Positions 36,343 through 46,773 of a stretch of 64,000 nucleotides of DNA are shown here, piece by piece; position 1 is the first letter of the stretch; each line of letters starts with the position of its first letter. The position numbers and the translations under genes were made by a program. The stretch is from contig JBFWSA010000005.1 in NCBI GenBank assembly GCA_050248615.1, positions 11,374 to 75,373 of the forward strand, written 5' to 3'. The stretch is from Simkaniaceae bacterium (GTDB lineage: Bacteria > Chlamydiota > Chlamydiia > Chlamydiales > Simkaniaceae). The notes beneath the pieces are model-generated. The model saw nothing but the letters and a program-made list of their open reading frames with translations. It was not told the DNA's origin and did no database searches.

Positions 36343-37959
36343 ATGTGGATGGCAGATAAAAAGCGCATTGTGATTTTAGGAGCGGGATTTGGGGGAGCCT
36401 ATACGGCTATGTATTTAGAAAAACACCTAAAAAAACATAAGGATGTCTTTGAAATCTACCTTGTGAACAGAGAGAATTACTTTGTCTTCCAACCGATGCT
36501 CGCTGAGGTTGTCGGAGGCTCTCTAGACCTACTCGACACGATTAACCCCTTAAGAAAACTCCTCCCCAAAACACACCTCTATGTTCGAGAAGTCGATGCA
36601 ATTGATCTTGAAAGAAAACAGATTATTCTCTCCCCTAAATACTCTCATACGCCCACTGAAGTGAGCTATGATCACCTCGTTTTAGCTCTGGGAAATGTTA
36701 CCGATTTCAGAGGGACTGCGGGGCTCCATGAACATGCCCTCCCCTTCAAAAACCTAGCCGATAGCATCGTCATCCGCAATCAGGTGATCGATGTCCTAGA
36801 GTCAGCAGCTTGTGAAGAGGACCCAGCCCTGAAACAAAAACTTTTAACGTTTGTTGTAGGAGGAGGAGGATTTTCTGGAACAGAGGTTGTCGCCGAGGTC
36901 AATGACTTGGTCCATAAGCTTTCTAAACAATACCCTTCGATTCACCACGAAGATATCCGTGTGGTCCTCGTGCATAGCAAAGAGAGGCTCATGGAACGGG
37001 AACTCAGTGAAAGTTTAAGTCGCTATGCAGAAAAACTCCTGAAAAAACGAGGGGTGGAAATCCGCTTTGGTGCCCATTTGTCCTCTGCAACCCCCGAAGA
37101 GGCCATTCTAGATACCGGAGAAAGGATCTGCGCTAAAACCATCATCTCTACTGTCCCTTCTTCTCCTAATCCTCTCATTGAAACCCTTCCCCTCCCTTTA
37201 GAAAAAGGAAAGATCGTCACAGATGCAGGAATGCAGGTGAAGGAACATCCAGAGATTTGGGCGATTGGAGATTGCGCTGCCATTCCGAACTTAGAAGGAA
37301 AAGGGATCTGCCCTCCAACGGCTCAATTTGCGATTCGGGAAGCAAAAGTCTTAGCCCATAATATCGCAGCAAGTCTTCTGGGCAGAAAGAAAAAAGAATT
37401 TCGCTTTAAAGCGCTTGGGATGATGGGAGCCTTAGGGCACCACTCCGCTGTTGCAGAACTCTTTGGCAAATTTAAGTTTTCGGGAATCTGTGCTTGGATC
37501 CTCTGGCGGATGATTTACTGGATGAAATTACCAGGCTTTGACCGTAAACTCAAAGTGGCCCTTTCGTGGATTCTCGATACGATGATCCCCATCGAAGCCG
37601 TTCAGATTAAAACCACTCCGAGTCAAGGCATTGCCCAACTTCACTTTGAAACCGGAGAGATCATTTTCCATCAGGATGATGTCGGCGATTATCTTTATAT
37701 CATCGTGAGTGGAGAAGTCGAAGTCTACGTGACAAAAGAAGGAAAAGATCGGGTGATTGCCAAGCTGGGTAAAGGAGAATACTTTGGGGAGATGGCCCTT
37801 TTAAACCAACGCTCCCGCTTAGCGACCGTCCGCTGTCTCACTCCAGTTGATGTCTTGGCTTTAAGAAAAAGCGATTTTGGTATTTTGATTTCAAATTTCC
37901 AAGAGCTTAGAAAAGATTTTGAGGAAACAGAAAAAACTCGTAGAAGAGAAATTGGATAA
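36343..37959 (+). CDS. Type II NADH dehydrogenase (NDH-2) with C-terminal cyclic-nucleotide-binding domain
   Basis: Two Rossmann motifs (ILGAGFGG, VVGGGGFSGTE), WAIGD and PPTAQFA. The C-terminus reads GEIIFHQ..GDYLYIIVSGEV..GEYFGEMALL..RSRLATV. Confidence 0.9.
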   Translation: MWMADKKRIVILGAGFGGAYTAMYLEKHLKKHKDVFEIYLVNRENYFVFQPMLAEVVGGSLDLLDTINPLRKLLPKTHLYVREVDAIDLERKQIILSPKYSHTPTEVSYDHLVLALGNVTDFRGTAGLHEHALPFKNLADSIVIRNQVIDVLESAACEEDPALKQKLLTFVVGGGGFSGTEVVAEVNDLVHKLSKQYPSIHHEDIRVVLVHSKERLMERELSESLSRYAEKLLKKRGVEIRFGAHLSSATPEEAILDTGERICAKTIISTVPSSPNPLIETLPLPLEKGKIVTDAGMQVKEHPEIWAIGDCAAIPNLEGKGICPPTAQFAIREAKVLAHNIAASLLGRKKKEFRFKALGMMGALGHHSAVAELFGKFKFSGICAWILWRMIYWMKLPGFDRKLKVALSWILDTMIPIEAVQIKTTPSQGIAQLHFETGEIIFHQDDVGDYLYIIVSGEVEVYVTKEGKDRVIAKLGKGEYFGEMALLNQRSRLATVRCLTPVDVLALRKSDFGILISNFQELRKDFEETEKTRRREIG

Positions 37960-39982: not shown

Positions 39983-41026
39983 ATGAAAGCTCGACATTTT
40001 TTACCCCTGTGCGCATCTATCTTTGCAACTGCGTTTGCACAAGATTCTCCTCCTTCTTATCAAGAAAATTGCTCGATTACTCCTCTTGCTCAACCCAATA
40101 AATCAAATAGAGTCGTCGATTTTTTCTTCGATGCCGCTTTTATCTATTGGACAGCAAGGCAAGATGGCCTTGCTTACGCCATTGAAGGGGCTGATTTTAA
40201 TTTAGTAAACTTTGACACTCAAAGGGGGCCTATTCATGAACCCGATTGGGCCTTTGAACCAGGCTTTAAGGTCGGAGCAGGATTAAAAATGGAGCATGAT
40301 GGGTGGGATGTCTATGCAAACTACACCTGGCTTCATAGCTCAGCAAGTGATTCCCTAACAGATCCCGGAAATTTCCTTCCAACACTCCAAAACGGTGCTT
40401 TTATCCTTTTCAACATCATCCCTAATCCTCCAGCAGGAGGAGGTTTTCAATCTGCAAGTGAAACCTGGAAACACCACTTTAATGTGATTGATTTAGAACT
40501 GGGGCGTGACTATTACATTAGCCAGTATCTCACCCTGCGTCCCCATTTTGGTTTCAAAGGGACCTGGCAAGAACAAGATGTCCGTGTACGGTATTCTTTT
40601 GTCGATACCAATCAGTTTAGAGCCCATCAACATCAAGATTCCTGGGGAATTGGAATTCGTACAGGTCTAAACGCCTGTTGGTTTTTTATCCCTTCCTTTG
40701 GCCTCTATGGAGATTTTGCCATCAGTGGTCTCTGGAGTGGATTTAACAATTCCCGAAAAGACGACCGGATTTTTCCTGATCAATCGACGCTAAACATCTT
40801 AGATACCCATGAGGTGACCCACTCTGTAAAACCCGTGATTGAGTTTGGTTTAGGATTACGCTACCAACTCCTCTACAATGACGATGACTACCGTTTTCTG
40901 ATCCAGGCGGGTTGGGAAGAGCAAATTTGGATGGATAACAATCATTTAATCGATTTCGCGCAATATGGAGAAAAGGGGACGCTCTCCCTCCAAGGATTCA
41001 CTTTGAAGGTGCGGTTTGACTTCTAA
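39983..41026 (+). CDS. MOMP-like outer membrane beta-barrel (Lpg1974-like)
   Basis: Signal peptide, PGFKVGAG, DLELGR, GWEEQIW and terminal VRFDF. Confidence 0.85.
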   Translation: MKARHFLPLCASIFATAFAQDSPPSYQENCSITPLAQPNKSNRVVDFFFDAAFIYWTARQDGLAYAIEGADFNLVNFDTQRGPIHEPDWAFEPGFKVGAGLKMEHDGWDVYANYTWLHSSASDSLTDPGNFLPTLQNGAFILFNIIPNPPAGGGFQSASETWKHHFNVIDLELGRDYYISQYLTLRPHFGFKGTWQEQDVRVRYSFVDTNQFRAHQHQDSWGIGIRTGLNACWFFIPSFGLYGDFAISGLWSGFNNSRKDDRIFPDQSTLNILDTHEVTHSVKPVIEFGLGLRYQLLYNDDDYRFLIQAGWEEQIWMDNNHLIDFAQYGEKGTLSLQGFTLKVRFDF

Positions 41027-41050
41027 CAATAAAACAATATCGGAGGCTTT

Positions 41051-42136
41051 ATGAAAGCACACAAACTCCTCTCACTTGCTGTGGGAATGGCTGCATGCTG
41101 CAGTACCACACTCGTTCAAGCTGACGGGCAAAGTCAGCGCGGGATGTATAATCCGCCCCCTTCACAAGGAGCAGAGCCCCTTCCCATTACCCCAAACGCT
41201 GGACCCAAGACCGTTTGGGCAGCAGATCCTTTCTTTACAGTAGACTTTATCTACTGGACACCTAGACAAGAGGGTCTAGCCTACGCCATTGAAGGGATCG
41301 ACTTTGGTGCTGTACCAATAGATACTAATAAAGGCCCTATTCATGAGCCTGACTTTGGTTTTGATCCCGGCTTTAAGGTAGGAGCAGGTGTCACCATGCA
41401 ACACGATGGATGGGATGTCTATGCAAACTACACCTGGATCCATAGCACCGCAACAGACAGTGTGACCGATGTCAATGGTTTCCTCCCCACACTACCAAAC
41501 TTTCTGTTCATTTTCTTTAACCTTACCAACCCTCAGCCTCCCATTACAGGAGATCTGTTTAAAGGAAAAACATCTTGGACGCTCCACTATAATACCATCG
41601 ATCTCGAGCTAGGAAGAAACTACTACATCAGCCGCTTCCTAACCTTGCGTCCCCATATCGGACTTAAAGGGACCTGGCAAGATCAAGATCTCCGTACTAG
41701 CTACCACATCACAGATGGCAATGTGATCTCCATTCATAACCATCAGGATTATTATGGAGTGGGTGTACGAGCCGGGTTAAATACCTGCTGGTATTTTATT
41801 AAATCGTTTGGCCTTTATGGAGATTTTGCCCTTACCGGAATGTGGAGTGGTTCGACGAATTTTAGGAATGACAAACGTCATGCTCCTGATGATACCGTTC
41901 AAGCCTTTTTAGAAACGCACCAAGTGAGCCACTCTGTGAAGCCTGTCTTTGAGTTTGGTATTGGCCTCCGCTATGAATACCTCTACAACGATGATGACTT
42001 CCGCTTCCTCATTCAAGCTGGATGGGAAGAGCAAATCTGGGTGGGAAATAACCAGTTTATCGACATTGCGGAATATGGAGATAAAGGGAATCTCACTCTC
42101 CAAGGTCTTACTCTAAAAGTCCGTTTTGACTTTTAA
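41051..42136 (+). CDS. MOMP-like outer membrane beta-barrel, tandem paralogue
   Basis: Long identical blocks shared with the preceding gene (DGWDVYANYTW, LTLRPH, FLIQAGWEEQIW, LKVRFDF). Confidence 0.85.
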   Translation: MKAHKLLSLAVGMAACCSTTLVQADGQSQRGMYNPPPSQGAEPLPITPNAGPKTVWAADPFFTVDFIYWTPRQEGLAYAIEGIDFGAVPIDTNKGPIHEPDFGFDPGFKVGAGVTMQHDGWDVYANYTWIHSTATDSVTDVNGFLPTLPNFLFIFFNLTNPQPPITGDLFKGKTSWTLHYNTIDLELGRNYYISRFLTLRPHIGLKGTWQDQDLRTSYHITDGNVISIHNHQDYYGVGVRAGLNTCWYFIKSFGLYGDFALTGMWSGSTNFRNDKRHAPDDTVQAFLETHQVSHSVKPVFEFGIGLRYEYLYNDDDFRFLIQAGWEEQIWVGNNQFIDIAEYGDKGNLTLQGLTLKVRFDF

Positions 42137-42607: not shown

Positions 42608-44029
42608 CTATCCTTTAAGAACCATAGAGGGGCGAAGCCGCGCTACGCGACTAGCGAGCTTTGTCTCTTCTACTGCTTCCACAACGGTATCAACATCTTT
42701 ATAGGCATCAGGCATCTCTTCTGCAATTGTCCGTCCCGAAGAGGCACGCACTAAGACATTTTGCTTCTCCATATGCTTCACGAGATCTTTTCCCTGCCAC
42801 GCTTTCAGAGACTGAACGCGGCTGCGTGCTCTACCGGCTCCATGACAAGAACTGCAAAAAGTGAGGGGATTCCCTAGACCAACCAAGAGATAGCTGGCGC
42901 GCCCCATATCCCCCGGAACTAGGACAGGTTGCCCCGTCTTTTTAAAAAGGGGCATGAGCTCTTCGGCACCAGGTCCATAGGCTCGCGTAGCACCTTTGCG
43001 GTGGACGCACAACCGTTTCCCCTGATGCGTTTCAAACTTTGCAATATTGTGACAGACATCATAGAGAAGTTTCACCTCCTCTTTAGGAATCGAGCATACT
43101 TCCTGAAAAGCCTGGCGCACAGCATGCAAAATTTGCTGACGGTTATTAAACGCAAAGTTAGCGGCAGCAGCCATCGCAGAAAAGTAATGTTGCCCCTCTT
43201 GACTTTGAATGGGCGCAGCTACCAATTGCCGGTCTGGAAGCCCTTCATGATACCCCTTTTTTATAAAGGCATTCAGGGTATCCTGACAGATCTGATGCCC
43301 AAACCCCCGCGATCCCGAGTGAATCAAGACATAGGTGAGTCCCTCTTCTACCCCCCAATCTTTTGCAATATCCCCTAAAAAGATCTTCTGAATCTCCCCG
43401 ATTTCTACAAAGTGATTCCCCGAACCAATGGTCCCCAGTTGATTAGCTCCCCTTTCCTTTGCATGGGAAGAAACGGTCTCTAAATCGGCATCTTCAATAC
43501 ATCCATGACTCTCCATGTGTTGCAAATCTTGTGCAAATCCAAATCCCTTTTCAATAGACCACCTCGCTCCTTGCTGAATGAGTGCGCGATAATCGGTATC
43601 ATTGAGTTTCTTTTTCCCTCGTTGCCCATGCCCGACCCCTGAGGGGACAAGAGCATAAATACGATCAATGAGATCTTGTTTCATGGACTGGGTAAAATCC
43701 TTAGATGGAAGGGGAACAAGGGCCATACGCACACCGCAATTGATGTCATAACCCACCCCTCCTGGACTGATCACTCCCTTCTTAACATCCATGGCGGCTA
43801 CCCCCCCAATGGGAAATCCATATCCCCAATGGATATCTGGCATCGCCACACTGTGCCCGACAATTCCAGGTAAATAAGCCACATTGCGGACTTGTTCGAG
43901 AGGTTTTTCGATCTCCATGTCTTGAAGGAGACTATCCGTGGCAATGAGAAGACCCGGAACACGCATCCCTCCAACTTTGGGAACGCGATAGGTTGCAGGT
44001 CCTATTTTTTCTAAATCAGACATCGACAA
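42608..44029 (-). CDS. rtcB: RtcB RNA ligase (archaeal/eukaryote-like type)
   Basis: MPDIHWGYGFPIGG, GYDINCG, GSGNHF, HSGSRG, HNIAK, HRKGAT and SCHGAGR. Confidence 0.96.
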   Translation of the reverse strand: MSMSDLEKIGPATYRVPKVGGMRVPGLLIATDSLLQDMEIEKPLEQVRNVAYLPGIVGHSVAMPDIHWGYGFPIGGVAAMDVKKGVISPGGVGYDINCGVRMALVPLPSKDFTQSMKQDLIDRIYALVPSGVGHGQRGKKKLNDTDYRALIQQGARWSIEKGFGFAQDLQHMESHGCIEDADLETVSSHAKERGANQLGTIGSGNHFVEIGEIQKIFLGDIAKDWGVEEGLTYVLIHSGSRGFGHQICQDTLNAFIKKGYHEGLPDRQLVAAPIQSQEGQHYFSAMAAAANFAFNNRQQILHAVRQAFQEVCSIPKEEVKLLYDVCHNIAKFETHQGKRLCVHRKGATRAYGPGAEELMPLFKKTGQPVLVPGDMGRASYLLVGLGNPLTFCSSCHGAGRARSRVQSLKAWQGKDLVKHMEKQNVLVRASSGRTIAEEMPDAYKDVDTVVEAVEETKLASRVARLRPSMVLKG

Positions 44030-44825
44030 TCATCTCCCAAGTCAAAATGCCACCCTCTTTTTTTATTGTCCCATGAAAACTTACCGCTTTAAAGGGAGTT
44101 CCGATCTGATGGTCTGCTCGAGAGACGATCTCATTTAGGCGCATAATCATCTCTTCTAAACTCTTTACATGAAGTGCGGAATCATAAAAAGGGAGGATTT
44201 CGGGACATTCAAAAGCTAGGGCTATTTGTGCATTTAAATAGAGCTGCTCCAAACTTTCCCCATAAATGCGAAAAGCGATATCGGCAATATGCTCGATCTC
44301 CTCAAAGGGAGGGAGGAGATCGTGGGTCCAGATGGGTTCATAACGAAGCCCACTGTGACTTTCGTAAAGATGGAGATTTTGAAAATAGATCGGTAAAGGT
44401 TTAAAGGCTTTTTTCCATTGACTGGGCAAAAAAGGACTCCGCCCGAGTGTCACATGCTTGAGAAATTCCCGATGTTCAAAGTGGTATCCTTGCGCTTCTA
44501 AAAAGGTGCTCAACGTTTCCTGATAATCTGCTAAGAGATCATGATCCCCTAAGGAATCTACATGCCATGTTACCACTTTAGGATCCCGTCGGGGTAAAAA
44601 CAAACACGAATCACACAAGCCCACTGGGGCAACTCGAAAGGGCGGGCGCGGAACCTTTGGAATGAGCGCTTTAATTTTCCCATACGAAGAGTCTCCCAGA
44701 AAAGCAAGGGTGATATGGCGGTGTTTGGCTCTCAAGGTACGGGCATCAGGAAGCGCTTCGGGCCAAGGAGCATGGGCCTCCATCCCGAAAAAAAGACGCT
44801 TCTGATCCAGATTATTTTCTGTCAT
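44016..44825 (-). CDS. 2H phosphoesterase (ThpR/LigT) - archease fusion protein
   Basis: N-terminal RLFFG, HITLAFLG, HVTLGR and LYES. C-terminal FEEIEHIADIAFRIYGESLEQL...KAVSFH...IVDV is the archease pattern. Confidence 0.88.
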   Translation of the reverse strand: MTENNLDQKRLFFGMEAHAPWPEALPDARTLRAKHRHITLAFLGDSSYGKIKALIPKVPRPPFRVAPVGLCDSCLFLPRRDPKVVTWHVDSLGDHDLLADYQETLSTFLEAQGYHFEHREFLKHVTLGRSPFLPSQWKKAFKPLPIYFQNLHLYESHSGLRYEPIWTHDLLPPFEEIEHIADIAFRIYGESLEQLYLNAQIALAFECPEILPFYDSALHVKSLEEMIMRLNEIVSRADHQIGTPFKAVSFHGTIKKEGGILTWEMIVDV

Positions 44826-45318
44826 CTTGTTTAGGACCTTTTAGAAGTCTTTTGAATATAGCATAAAAGAATCCTACTAAAATACCAAAAACAAGATGGC
44901 TAATGATCGAATTTACCACTTCCCCGATGGCGGCATCACTCCAACGGTAATTGGGGGAAATAGAGAAGAAAAGAGGCATCAGATAAAACGGAGTAATCAG
45001 CCACCAAACCATTCCAAAGACTGCCCCCAACCAAACGCCTCTCCATAGATTTTTCACAAGTTTCTGAAAAATCAGGGAAAAAAGAATTCCCAAAACAGTT
45101 GCAGTAAAAAAATGCCCGATATAAATGATCACATTTTCACTCACCCCATAAGCCTGCCCTACCAATTCATAGACCTTCATTTGGTCTAAAACAACCATAA
45201 GGAGCATCGGAGGAATGATCTGCGTATGCATCCAAAGGAGCATTACAATCATACCGGTTAGGAGCCCTGCAATCGCCCCCAATAACACATTTAATAAAAT
45301 AGAAGCCTTCTTCGTCAT
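44812..45318 (-). CDS. Four-TM membrane protein with two intramembrane His
   Basis: GAIAGLLT, IGHFF, GAVFGMVWW and SHLVFG. Overlaps the thpR-archease start by 14 nt. Confidence 0.75.
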   Translation of the reverse strand: MTKKASILLNVLLGAIAGLLTGMIVMLLWMHTQIIPPMLLMVVLDQMKVYELVGQAYGVSENVIIYIGHFFTATVLGILFSLIFQKLVKNLWRGVWLGAVFGMVWWLITPFYLMPLFFSISPNYRWSDAAIGEVVNSIISHLVFGILVGFFYAIFKRLLKGPKQDDRK

Positions 45319-45375
45319 AATTTATACATAACACCTCTTTGAAAAAAAAAAGAACTCTAGCTATCTAATAAAGTT

Positions 45376-46773
45376 ATGAACCCCTCTGTATTTCATCACG
45401 TTCTTTCTGCTTTTATCTCCGAAAGATATCCCTATACAAAATCCCATCCCATTGAAAACCCAGACCTTTTAAAGTCTTGGGGTCTTGATCCTAAAATCTA
45501 CCGTCCCCTTCCGCGTCAAACCTTTCACGAGGAACTAGGAATTGCAGAAATAAAAGGCCCTTTTCAAGATCTTCAACTGCTAAAAAAACATCTGATTGAT
45601 TCTGCAGTCCTCTCTCTTTACACTCACGCTCCCCCCCGAAGATCGATTATCCTCTTCACGTGGGTCTATTGGGATGGATGGGGAGATTATTATGCACAAC
45701 TCGATTGTGCGAAACTCTTAAGAGAGCGCTTGGGAGACCACGAGATCACTTTAGTCACCTGTTTGAGAAAAACCCAGCCCCCCACGGAAACGCTCCCGAA
45801 TCAACATTTTGTCTTCTTTGAAAAAGGGAGTAAACCGCAGTTCCCCCCCTTCCTTCTAAAAAAAATGCAAGCGAGCCATCTTCTTTTTCAATTTCCTACC
45901 TACTACCCCCATACTGATGCCCTGATGGAGGAGCTGGGGCCTCAGCTCAAATATGAATTTTTAGGAGAGAGTGGATTCATTGACACTCCCGATTATCACC
46001 CTCAATGTGGGCGACGTTGTATGGGGCTACATTTTCTCGAAAAAGGAGTACTGATCAAGTCGGTTCCTCCTAAAAAAAAGGGCCCTCCTTACTATTTTGC
46101 TTATACCCGGAGTGCAGAGGGGCTCTACCACTACATCCAAGCCTTAATTTCTTGGAAGCAAACCGATCTTTCTCTCTGTGTTTTTAAAATAGAGCACGTT
46201 CTTAATGTCGTGAAACAGGGGATTCCAGGAGTCAAACAAGCAGAAATCTTCATCGATCATACCGTGACAACCGTTCCTCTAGCAGAAACAGGAATCCTTT
46301 TACGTTTTGATGTGAAACAAAAGGTTTCCCATCGTGTGTTTTTGACTTTGCTCAATGAAAGTGAAGATTTTGTAGCTTGTACAGGAGATGGCTCCCTTTT
46401 TGAAGCGATCTCTTGTGGGAAAATCTTTTATTACGACACCCCTCAGCACAAAAAAAACTTTCTGGAAGATCTTGTAGCCCTTGCAACGACGCGTACCCCT
46501 CAGGCTCTCCCTTTTTTTAAAAATCCTGCAGCTGTTCAAGACATTGCGGTGAGAAAAGCTCTTTTTGAACTCACAGCAATCATTCAAAGAGAGCATGCGG
46601 TGAATGAGACCCTTTGTCAAATCATCCGACGCGCTCTTTGCCACCAAGCTGTTCCCGAGCTGGAACAACATGAACAAAGGATCCTCACCTCCTTTTCGAA
46701 AGGAGAGATTGATGCTCCTGAAGCCCTTAATGCTATCCATAAAACCCTGAACCTGCTAATTCCTAAAGCATGA
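45376..46773 (+). CDS. Hypothetical protein, GT-B glycosyltransferase-like (EarP-like motifs)
   Basis: DGWGDYY near the N-terminus and DFVACTGDGSLFEAISCGKIF near the C-terminus. Confidence 0.45.
   Translation: MNPSVFHHVLSAFISERYPYTKSHPIENPDLLKSWGLDPKIYRPLPRQTFHEELGIAEIKGPFQDLQLLKKHLIDSAVLSLYTHAPPRRSIILFTWVYWDGWGDYYAQLDCAKLLRERLGDHEITLVTCLRKTQPPTETLPNQHFVFFEKGSKPQFPPFLLKKMQASHLLFQFPTYYPHTDALMEELGPQLKYEFLGESGFIDTPDYHPQCGRRCMGLHFLEKGVLIKSVPPKKKGPPYYFAYTRSAEGLYHYIQALISWKQTDLSLCVFKIEHVLNVVKQGIPGVKQAEIFIDHTVTTVPLAETGILLRFDVKQKVSHRVFLTLLNESEDFVACTGDGSLFEAISCGKIFYYDTPQHKKNFLEDLVALATTRTPQALPFFKNPAAVQDIAVRKALFELTAIIQREHAVNETLCQIIRRALCHQAVPELEQHEQRILTSFSKGEIDAPEALNAIHKTLNLLIPKA

Follow-up and report, generated by a model that had tools for sequence, protein, structure and literature searches.

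The 64,000-nucleotide stretch of Simkaniaceae DNA analysed here (the window; assembly GCA_050248615.1, contig JBFWSA010000005.1) carries on its minus strand a gene in which a ThpR-type 2H phosphodiesterase is joined to a shortened archease, and which runs into the gene for the RNA ligase RtcB. Three open reading frames (ORFs) follow one another there, as a first-pass annotation made from the letters alone had described: one of 168 amino acids (45318-44812), one of 269 amino acids (44825-44016) and RtcB itself (stop at 42608). The fusion gene (P0001; 44016..44825, minus strand) encodes the 2H domain in residues about 8-170 (44316..44804, minus strand), delimited by VIA-align comparison with 1vdx and 5ldi and by profile alignment to E. 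coli LigT, and the mini-archease in residues 171-269 (44019..44315, minus strand). RtcB (P0002; 42608..44023, minus strand) is a 471-amino-acid ligase of the Thermus/archaeal type, and a helical membrane protein of 168 amino acids with weak DUF1440/YqhR similarity (Pfam matches under cut-off; 44812..45318, minus strand) is encoded immediately upstream of the fusion.

Each of these genes had been proposed to overlap the next by 14 nucleotides, which is right for the membrane gene and the fusion but not for the fusion and rtcB, whose overlap is 8 nucleotides (ATGTCTGA; 44016..44023, minus strand). The rtcB start codon, an ATG at 44023, is embedded in GAT-GTN, the codons of the last two archease residues (Asp268-Val269), and the fusion stop codon follows. 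The TTG at 44029, which would give the 14-nucleotide overlap, was rejected as the rtcB start, the ATG being kept by relatives in 92 of 93 distinct rtcB-linked fusions. The Asp codon that carries this start is GAT in 92 of the 93, against 74% GAT at the remaining Asp codons of these genes (binomial P 3e-11, an overstatement since kin are not independent). Ten nucleotides ahead of the ATG, the Trp263-Glu264 codons (TGG GAG; 44029-44038, minus strand), inside the last strand of the archease, yield GGGAG, a possible ribosome-binding site; since Trp263 is kept in rtcB-less copies too, it may instead be structural.

The 2H-archease fusion is real. The motifs HITL, HVTL, EHIAD and KAVSFH and the terminal DV share a single stop-free frame, as the first-pass annotation had it, and a Pfam scan returned both LigT_PEase (PF02834; 29.7 bits, cut-off 23.3, residues 27-80) and Archease (PF01951; 33.6 bits, cut-off 25, covering residues 174-204 only), the profile match whose lack at the C-terminus would have told against an archease. 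Homologues of the fusion numbered 518 among 865 candidates (147-471 amino acids; query coverage 92-100% in the 120 listed), and an independent activated-sludge contig covers 43122-44528 without a gap, crossing the junction between the domains as well as that with rtcB. On these grounds, and on the recurrence of the fusion across genomes, a frameshift or assembly artefact fusing two genes, a worry raised at first pass, was rejected, and the coupling of a genuine fusion to RtcB stands. The AlphaFold2 model of the fusion, built from 36 sequences, had a mean predicted local distance difference test score (pLDDT) of 94.2.

In this model, residues 6-172 adopt a 2H fold with its two HxT motifs, matching P. 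horikoshii 1vdx (VIA-align Z 16.9, root-mean-square deviation (rmsd) 2.6, 160 residues aligned) and E. coli LigT 5ldi (Z 15.6, rmsd 2.9, 160 aligned); the profile alignment to E. coli LigT gave E 2.4e-8. Both extended ThpR motifs, HxTxxF and HxTxxR as defined in PMC4201822, are present within 44316..44804 on the minus strand as HITLAF (H37-I-T39-L-A-F42) and HVTLGR (H124-V-T126-L-G-R129), together with R10 and F12, which match LigT Arg6, a residue whose role is treated in PMC5283653, and Phe8 respectively. Conservation was followed in 254 full-length homologues (those of 240-300 amino acids among 267 fetched proteins, duplicates dropped), in which H37 was kept in 250, T39 in 253, H124 in 253, R129 in 242 and F42 in 239. 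By its profile score the half is ThpR-type rather than ThpR proper: it reaches 44.1 bits against the TIGR02258 equivalog cut-off of 65.7, which a single fusion copy among those listed exceeds (G395, 67.7 bits). It is about 10 residues shorter near the N-terminus than E. coli LigT. That cut-off was passed in 13 of 401 Chlamydiota genomes, 12 of them through stand-alone genes and mostly in genomes holding the fusion; about ten fusion-bearing genomes possess a canonical stand-alone ThpR and yet keep the fused copy. No ThpR-like gene other than the fused 2H domain was found in the genome of the window.

E. coli ThpR yields a 2'-phosphate, which RtcB does not seal (PMC4201822), bearing out the chemical mismatch that the first-pass annotation had pointed to; the same enzyme cleaves 2'-5', not 3'-5', linkages by a reversible transesterification whose equilibrium favours cleavage (review within PMC4201822). 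By analogy, the N-terminal half is probably a cyclic phosphodiesterase that forms 2'-phosphate and can act without RtcB.

The C-terminal half is a shortened variant of the archease fold rather than the full-length two-module fold of about 140 amino acids. Residues 172-269 match T. maritima archease 1j5u (Z 9.2, rmsd 2.8, 83 aligned) and human archease in 8odo (Z 8.6, rmsd 3.3, 93 aligned); compared with nine full-length archeases, about 36 residues are absent between helix 2 and the KAVSFH motif, and NCBIfam NF001617 scored 20.4 bits, far under its cut-off of 126. The metal-binding tip is complete, with H179, D182, K246 and D268 and then V269 directly followed by the stop. E178, H179, D182, K246, D268 and V269 match E8, H9, D12, K117, D141 and I142 of PhArchease, in which mutation of all but E8 severely cut activation with guanosine triphosphate (PMC3973293); in the human RTCB-archease complex, a third Mn ion is held by D51, D178 and the carboxylate of I179, with K156 binding phosphate (bioRxiv 2023.03.30.534986). 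H179, D182, K246 and a terminal D-[VIL] are kept in 205 of the 254 full-length homologues, in which the archease domain measures 92-102 amino acids (median 97), so the family is a natural minimal archease of about 97 amino acids. The extra domain may sit at the N-terminus because archease needs a free C-terminal carboxylate. From its likeness to these characterised proteins, the mini-archease very probably recharges RtcB.

RtcB itself scored 537.7 bits against PF01139, over cut-off, and its closest solved structures are those of T. thermophilus (2epg, 506.6 bits) and P. horikoshii (470.6 bits). D93, C96, H204, H235, H325 and H394 are invariant in 23 sequences and, in our reading of the motifs, appear to correspond to human D119, C122, H227, H259, H353 and H428; the first-pass annotation had likewise credited RtcB with all the catalytic motifs. 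T. thermophilus RtcB performs multiple turnovers only with archease, and the P. horikoshii archease-RtcB pair interacts only transiently (PMC4604427), while on human RTCB archease covers the RNA-binding surface, so that either archease or RNA can bind, but not both (bioRxiv 2023.03.30.534986). Cyclic ends are opened to 3'-phosphate by RtcB itself (PMC4604427, PMC4201822). Complex prediction for the fusion with RtcB gave 0.51 against 0.00 for the best control, with contact agreement between runs of at least 88% and a partner pLDDT of at least 87. Of 157 solved complexes, 116 reached the mark used, as did 2 of 215 mismatched pairs, but with scores of 0.60 or below it was reached by just 18 solved complexes and by both of the mismatched pairs. 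The prediction, which returned no contacts, is weak support for the pairing and, a like complex having been solved (8odo/8odp), may merely echo that known structure. An RtcB2-PrfH ribosome repair module was considered and rejected, TIGR03073 scoring 149.6 against 271.8 and the adjacent ORFs having no release-factor match.

The range of the fusion was judged from named homologues, which come from Chlamydiia, Simkania, Simkaniaceae and Parachlamydiales, and from its Atlas cluster (254 members, Chlamydiota commonest); the genome search covered Chlamydiota. Of 401 genomes, 181 matched the fusion and 183 matched RtcB, 163 of these at E <1e-100, the level taken as a close (cognate) RtcB. They split into 161 with a fusion match and close RtcB, 20 with the fusion only, 2 with RtcB only and 218 with neither, and in a single family of 30 small genomes (1.0-1.2 Mb), probably the Chlamydiaceae to judge by these sizes, 0 of 30 had either. 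Across at least 14 families, with 36-50% identity, the fusion is kept intact. In 132 of the 133 genomes common to both match tables (best 150 rows of each), rtcB came directly downstream and in the same orientation, the sole exception being G166, whose fusion lies at a contig end, and it followed the fusion in 66 of 67 metagenome loci with room downstream (among the best 80 of 176). Adjacent and co-oriented as archease and rtcB are, the locus is a variant of the archease-rtcB operon, conserved in environmental chlamydiae.

Little else recurs around the pair. No third gene was constant, the commonest neighbour family occurring in 18 of 140 loci; there was no match in plasmids, viral contigs or PADLOC that would indicate a mobile or defence context; the sole Rfam match was far under its gathering score and was taken as chance; and neither the promoter nor the terminator scan rose above chance. 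A donor of either half was not identified, the shorter relatives being family fragments, 2H-less forms and weak generic archeases. Among the exceptions to joint occurrence, G067 and G296 have a close RtcB match without any fusion match, and the ThpR that stands alone in G067 (L064) lacks an rtcB within the 1.5 kb on its flanks; their RtcBs are possibly archease-independent or separately acquired. Two genomes, G061 (L042, L043) and G149 (L041, L012), hold two copies each, one with a decayed archease between major facilitator superfamily and transaldolase genes, like the neighbourhood in the window, and the other an intact fusion with rtcB beside an unrelated large gene elsewhere, which suggests re-acquisition of the module. 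Contigs from one metatranscriptome dataset cover pieces of all three genes; DNA carry-over is possible and expression is not claimed. ARAGORN made four intron calls, which bear on tRNA introns as a possible substrate.

We then considered natural losses of the two halves. Of the 20 genomes with a fusion match and no close RtcB, two most probably matched through a stand-alone ThpR (G348, seen directly, and G373, judged from a 183-amino-acid frame) and one (G372) is a remnant, which left 17. The archease was decayed or truncated in 15 of the 17 (families f1, f6, f8, f12 and f24), and both HxT motifs and R129 were kept in 13 of these 15. At the level of proteins, 49 of the 254 had lost the archease residue set, 47 of them keeping H37, T39 and H124, while a 2H histidine was lost in 2 of the 205 proteins with an intact archease. 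On a FastTree tree of the 2H part, loss of the archease set fell at 29 separate places (29 state changes), which we read as many independent losses rather than a count, the tree being short and poorly resolved. In a recently uncoupled pair (G045/G032), the 2H half had a nonsynonymous divergence (dN) of 0.008 and a synonymous divergence (dS) of 0.23, indicating purifying selection; the ratio of archease to 2H dN was 1.4-6.1 in 6 recently uncoupled pairs versus 0.47-1.21 in 7 rtcB-linked pairs. The reverse loss also occurs: the 2H domain is missing or damaged beside an intact archease and rtcB in G044, G132, G345 and L003, numbers that are under-counted since such cases were sought among 10 weak-scoring genomes and the earlier loci only. 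G233 is frameshifted. These natural losses suggest that the two halves have separate jobs and that only the archease half serves RtcB, and the repeated, independent decay of archease once rtcB is gone counts as evolutionary evidence for RtcB as its essential partner in these bacteria.

Some of these lineages carry another ligase. The weak RtcB matches checked in 5 of the 20 fusion-only genomes are distant RtcBs at 34-40% identity, and rtcB-less lineages at loci L034-L040 (G071, G045, G032, G052, G152) have such a distant RtcB elsewhere, possibly an archease-independent replacement. In G039, whose locus L092 shows a decayed archease with rtcB missing next to it, an RtcB match (E 1.5e-120) lies elsewhere in the genome.

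Taken together, we favour with moderate confidence a two-gene chlamydial module for the triage of RNA ends, in which one transcript would supply RtcB and one fusion protein with two separate jobs. The mini-archease would dock into RtcB and recharge it with guanosine monophosphate, D182, D268 and the free carboxylate of V269 completing the third metal site and K246 binding the leaving phosphate, by analogy with the human complex, so as to make RtcB a multiple-turnover enzyme. The fusion would leave RtcB before RNA binds, and the 2H domain would therefore not hand ends to the ligase; it would open 2',3'-cyclic phosphate ends to 2'-phosphate with no need of RtcB. Least certain are the two arms that might follow: a repair arm, with RtcB sealing breaks whose ends are held together, and a discard arm, with the 2H domain disarming loose cyclic-phosphate fragments and 2',3'-cyclic nucleotides that could otherwise be mis-ligated or waste charged RtcB. 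Of the ideas put forward at first pass, a switch between repair and blocking comes closest to this. The channelled heal-and-seal complex proposed alongside it is unlikely, since archease covers the RNA-binding surface of RTCB, excluding RNA in the human case, and binds transiently in the P. horikoshii pair, and since the 2'-phosphate made by E. coli ThpR is not sealed; the 2H half is moreover under purifying selection after rtcB loss.

Several observations weigh against two separate jobs within a triage module. The main result on that side is that where a cognate rtcB is missing the entire fusion mostly is too (neither is present in 218 of 401 genomes): the 2H half is usually lost with rtcB, which points to more dependence than such a module allows. 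To express a destroyer of RtcB's substrate together with RtcB is odd in itself. The 2H half falls short of the TIGR02258 cut-off (44.1 versus 65.7 bits), the regiochemistry of its product is read from motifs, and searches for enzymes able to rescue a 2'-phosphate mostly came back empty: 4 of 301 Chlamydiota genomes had RtcA, with no PF01137 match in the 96%-complete genome of the window, and Tpt1 was not found in that same genome, the one searched for it. Exceptions also exist within the rtcB-less set. His37 is lost in G293 and G339, and two of the 13 copies with both motifs (G034, G054) are broken by a stop or frameshift; conversely, an intact archease persists without rtcB in G127, G095 and at locus L130, which retains a remnant of the rtcB start, and these three we read as recent rtcB losses, assembly gaps being possible. 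In an older rtcB-less clade the archease to 2H dN ratio is 0.60-0.98 (5 pairs), the former archease being as conserved as the 2H half, perhaps because the dead domain is conserved structurally; this clade includes two members without His37. Lastly, the protein set is biased to full-length matches, so that 2H loss in it is under-counted.

The same losses can be explained otherwise. One could suppose that thpR and archease were joined by a deletion in an ancestral chlamydial operon and kept for compactness only, the 2H enzyme and RtcB being functionally unconnected; both domains are shortened, the halves are separable in both directions (archease decay in 15 genomes, 2H loss in G044, G132, G345 and L003), and the fused 2H gene is the only ThpR-like one found in the genome of the window. 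We nevertheless think this unlikely, given that the fusion stays intact across at least 14 families at 36-50% identity, that some ten genomes equipped with a canonical stand-alone ThpR still keep the fused one, and that most rtcB-less genomes also lack the 2H gene. That joint loss would suit a proofreading function, in which the 2H domain cleaves wrong 2'-5' linkages to a 2',3'-cyclic phosphate end plus a 5'-OH end and RtcB reseals them as 3'-5', fusion and ligase together forming an RNA 2'-5' to 3'-5' isomerase. E. coli LigT/ThpR does cut 2'-5' and not 3'-5' linkages with cleavage favoured (PMC4201822), which is the sole known ThpR reaction whose products RtcB can use, and neither RtcA nor Tpt1, both mostly not found, is needed for it. 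According to the same paper, however, no E. coli RNA with 2'-5' linkages is known and hydrolysis dominates on single-stranded RNA ending in a cyclic phosphate (PMC4201822), and the 2H half remains under selection in lineages without the cognate ligase to reseal its products. We consider this proposal, too, improbable; if true, it would give a biological purpose to the long-unexplained 2'-5' nuclease and ligase activity of LigT.

Less probable still is a 2H domain whose specificity has switched to producing 3'-phosphate ends that are fed to RtcB, an altered specificity already floated in the first-pass annotation. There is precedent in the 2H enzyme Usb1 of yeast, which can leave a 3'-phosphate (PMC5591277), and the fused domain has diverged from canonical ThpR. 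Its residues, however, give no sign of such a change: the active-site set of ThpR is conserved (H37, T39, H124, R129 and F42 in 239-253 of the 254 proteins), with the extended motifs and the Arg6 and Phe8 equivalents. RtcB, moreover, opens cyclic ends to 3'-phosphate unaided, and archease and RNA exclude each other on RTCB (bioRxiv 2023.03.30.534986).

Among known systems, the nearest is the archease-rtcB 'tRNA splicing operon' found in prokaryotes such as P. horikoshii and T. thermophilus (PMC3973293, PMC4604427), alike in an archease that adjoins rtcB and has the metal-binding tip; among solved structures, RtcB here is closest to the archease-dependent T. thermophilus enzyme. The chlamydial locus differs in its archease of about 97 rather than about 140 amino acids, some 36 residues short after helix 2, in the N-terminal 2H enzyme, in the rtcB start placed within the last two archease codons and in its Chlamydiota host. 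E. coli ThpR/LigT (PMC4201822, PMC5283653) shares the fold, extended motifs and Arg6/Phe8 equivalents, but is a stand-alone enzyme, whereas the chlamydial 2H domain is archease-fused, trimmed near its N-terminus and under the TIGR02258 cut-off. For human RTCB-Archease (8odo/8odp), the third-Mn-site and phosphate residues all have counterparts (D182, D268, the V269 carboxylate and K246), although in humans archease is not part of a fusion. The mammalian 2H enzyme CNP, a separate protein, is a competitor of RTCB (PMC13247085), while here such a competitor would be carried by the activator itself. The E. coli rtcR-rtcBA operon (PMC3854526) likewise co-encodes RtcB with an RNA 3'-end enzyme, but its RtcA makes cyclic ends that RtcB can seal and a ThpR-type enzyme removes them. 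Fungal and plant ligases of the Trl1 type also join a 2H cyclic phosphodiesterase to RNA repair machinery, namely a polynucleotide kinase and an ATP-dependent ligase; the Trl1 ligase needs a 2'-phosphate and a 5' kinase, whereas RtcB does not seal 2'-phosphate ends, and the 2H domain is all that the two have in common, the ligase here being RtcB and Pfam finding no kinase family in the three genes.

The first-pass annotation knew of no characterised example of this fusion, and we found no description of it in the full-text literature searched, which leaves out most subscription papers, so a prior mention is possible. The passages of a 2026 review that were consulted mention neither ThpR nor any fusion. 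What bacterial ThpR/LigT does physiologically is left open by PMC4201822 and PMC5283653, and its phylum-wide fusion to the activator of RtcB places it in an RNA-repair setting. The two-protein system also lets competition or cooperation between end-opening and sealing be assayed directly. All three parts belong to known families, and the advance is moderate unless the proofreading proposal holds.

The membrane gene had been taken as a third, histidine-bearing member of the module. It is present, yet it is a local passenger: homologues occur in 9 of 200 genomes (one further genome unscored) and upstream of the fusion in 1 of 62 metagenome loci with room, and the gene is absent beside a same-genus relative and stays beside several rtcB-less decayed copies. 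Its H69 and H141 vary among 7 relatives, L011 losing both aligned histidines, and its model had no fold match at E<=0.001. A functional membership was accordingly rejected. No rtcA lies beside rtcB, unlike the rtcR-rtcBA arrangement, in agreement with the first-pass remark that neither rtcA nor rtcR is adjacent; the flanking ORFs (109 and 465 amino acids) have no Pfam or NCBIfam match, rtcR having been looked for at the locus and not genome-wide.

The 465-amino-acid ORF (45376-46773) is divergent from the operon and has a 31%-identical homologue near the fusion in L049 and L051 as well. On the other side lie two tandem porin-like genes of about 350 amino acids each (39983-42136), the second matching Legionella_OMP PF05150, and, further on, a 538-amino-acid ORF (36343-37959) that, as read from its sequence, resembles a type II NADH dehydrogenase whose C-terminus forms a cyclic-nucleotide-binding domain. 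At 45342, in a non-coding T run upstream of the membrane gene, two independent contigs are short of one T.

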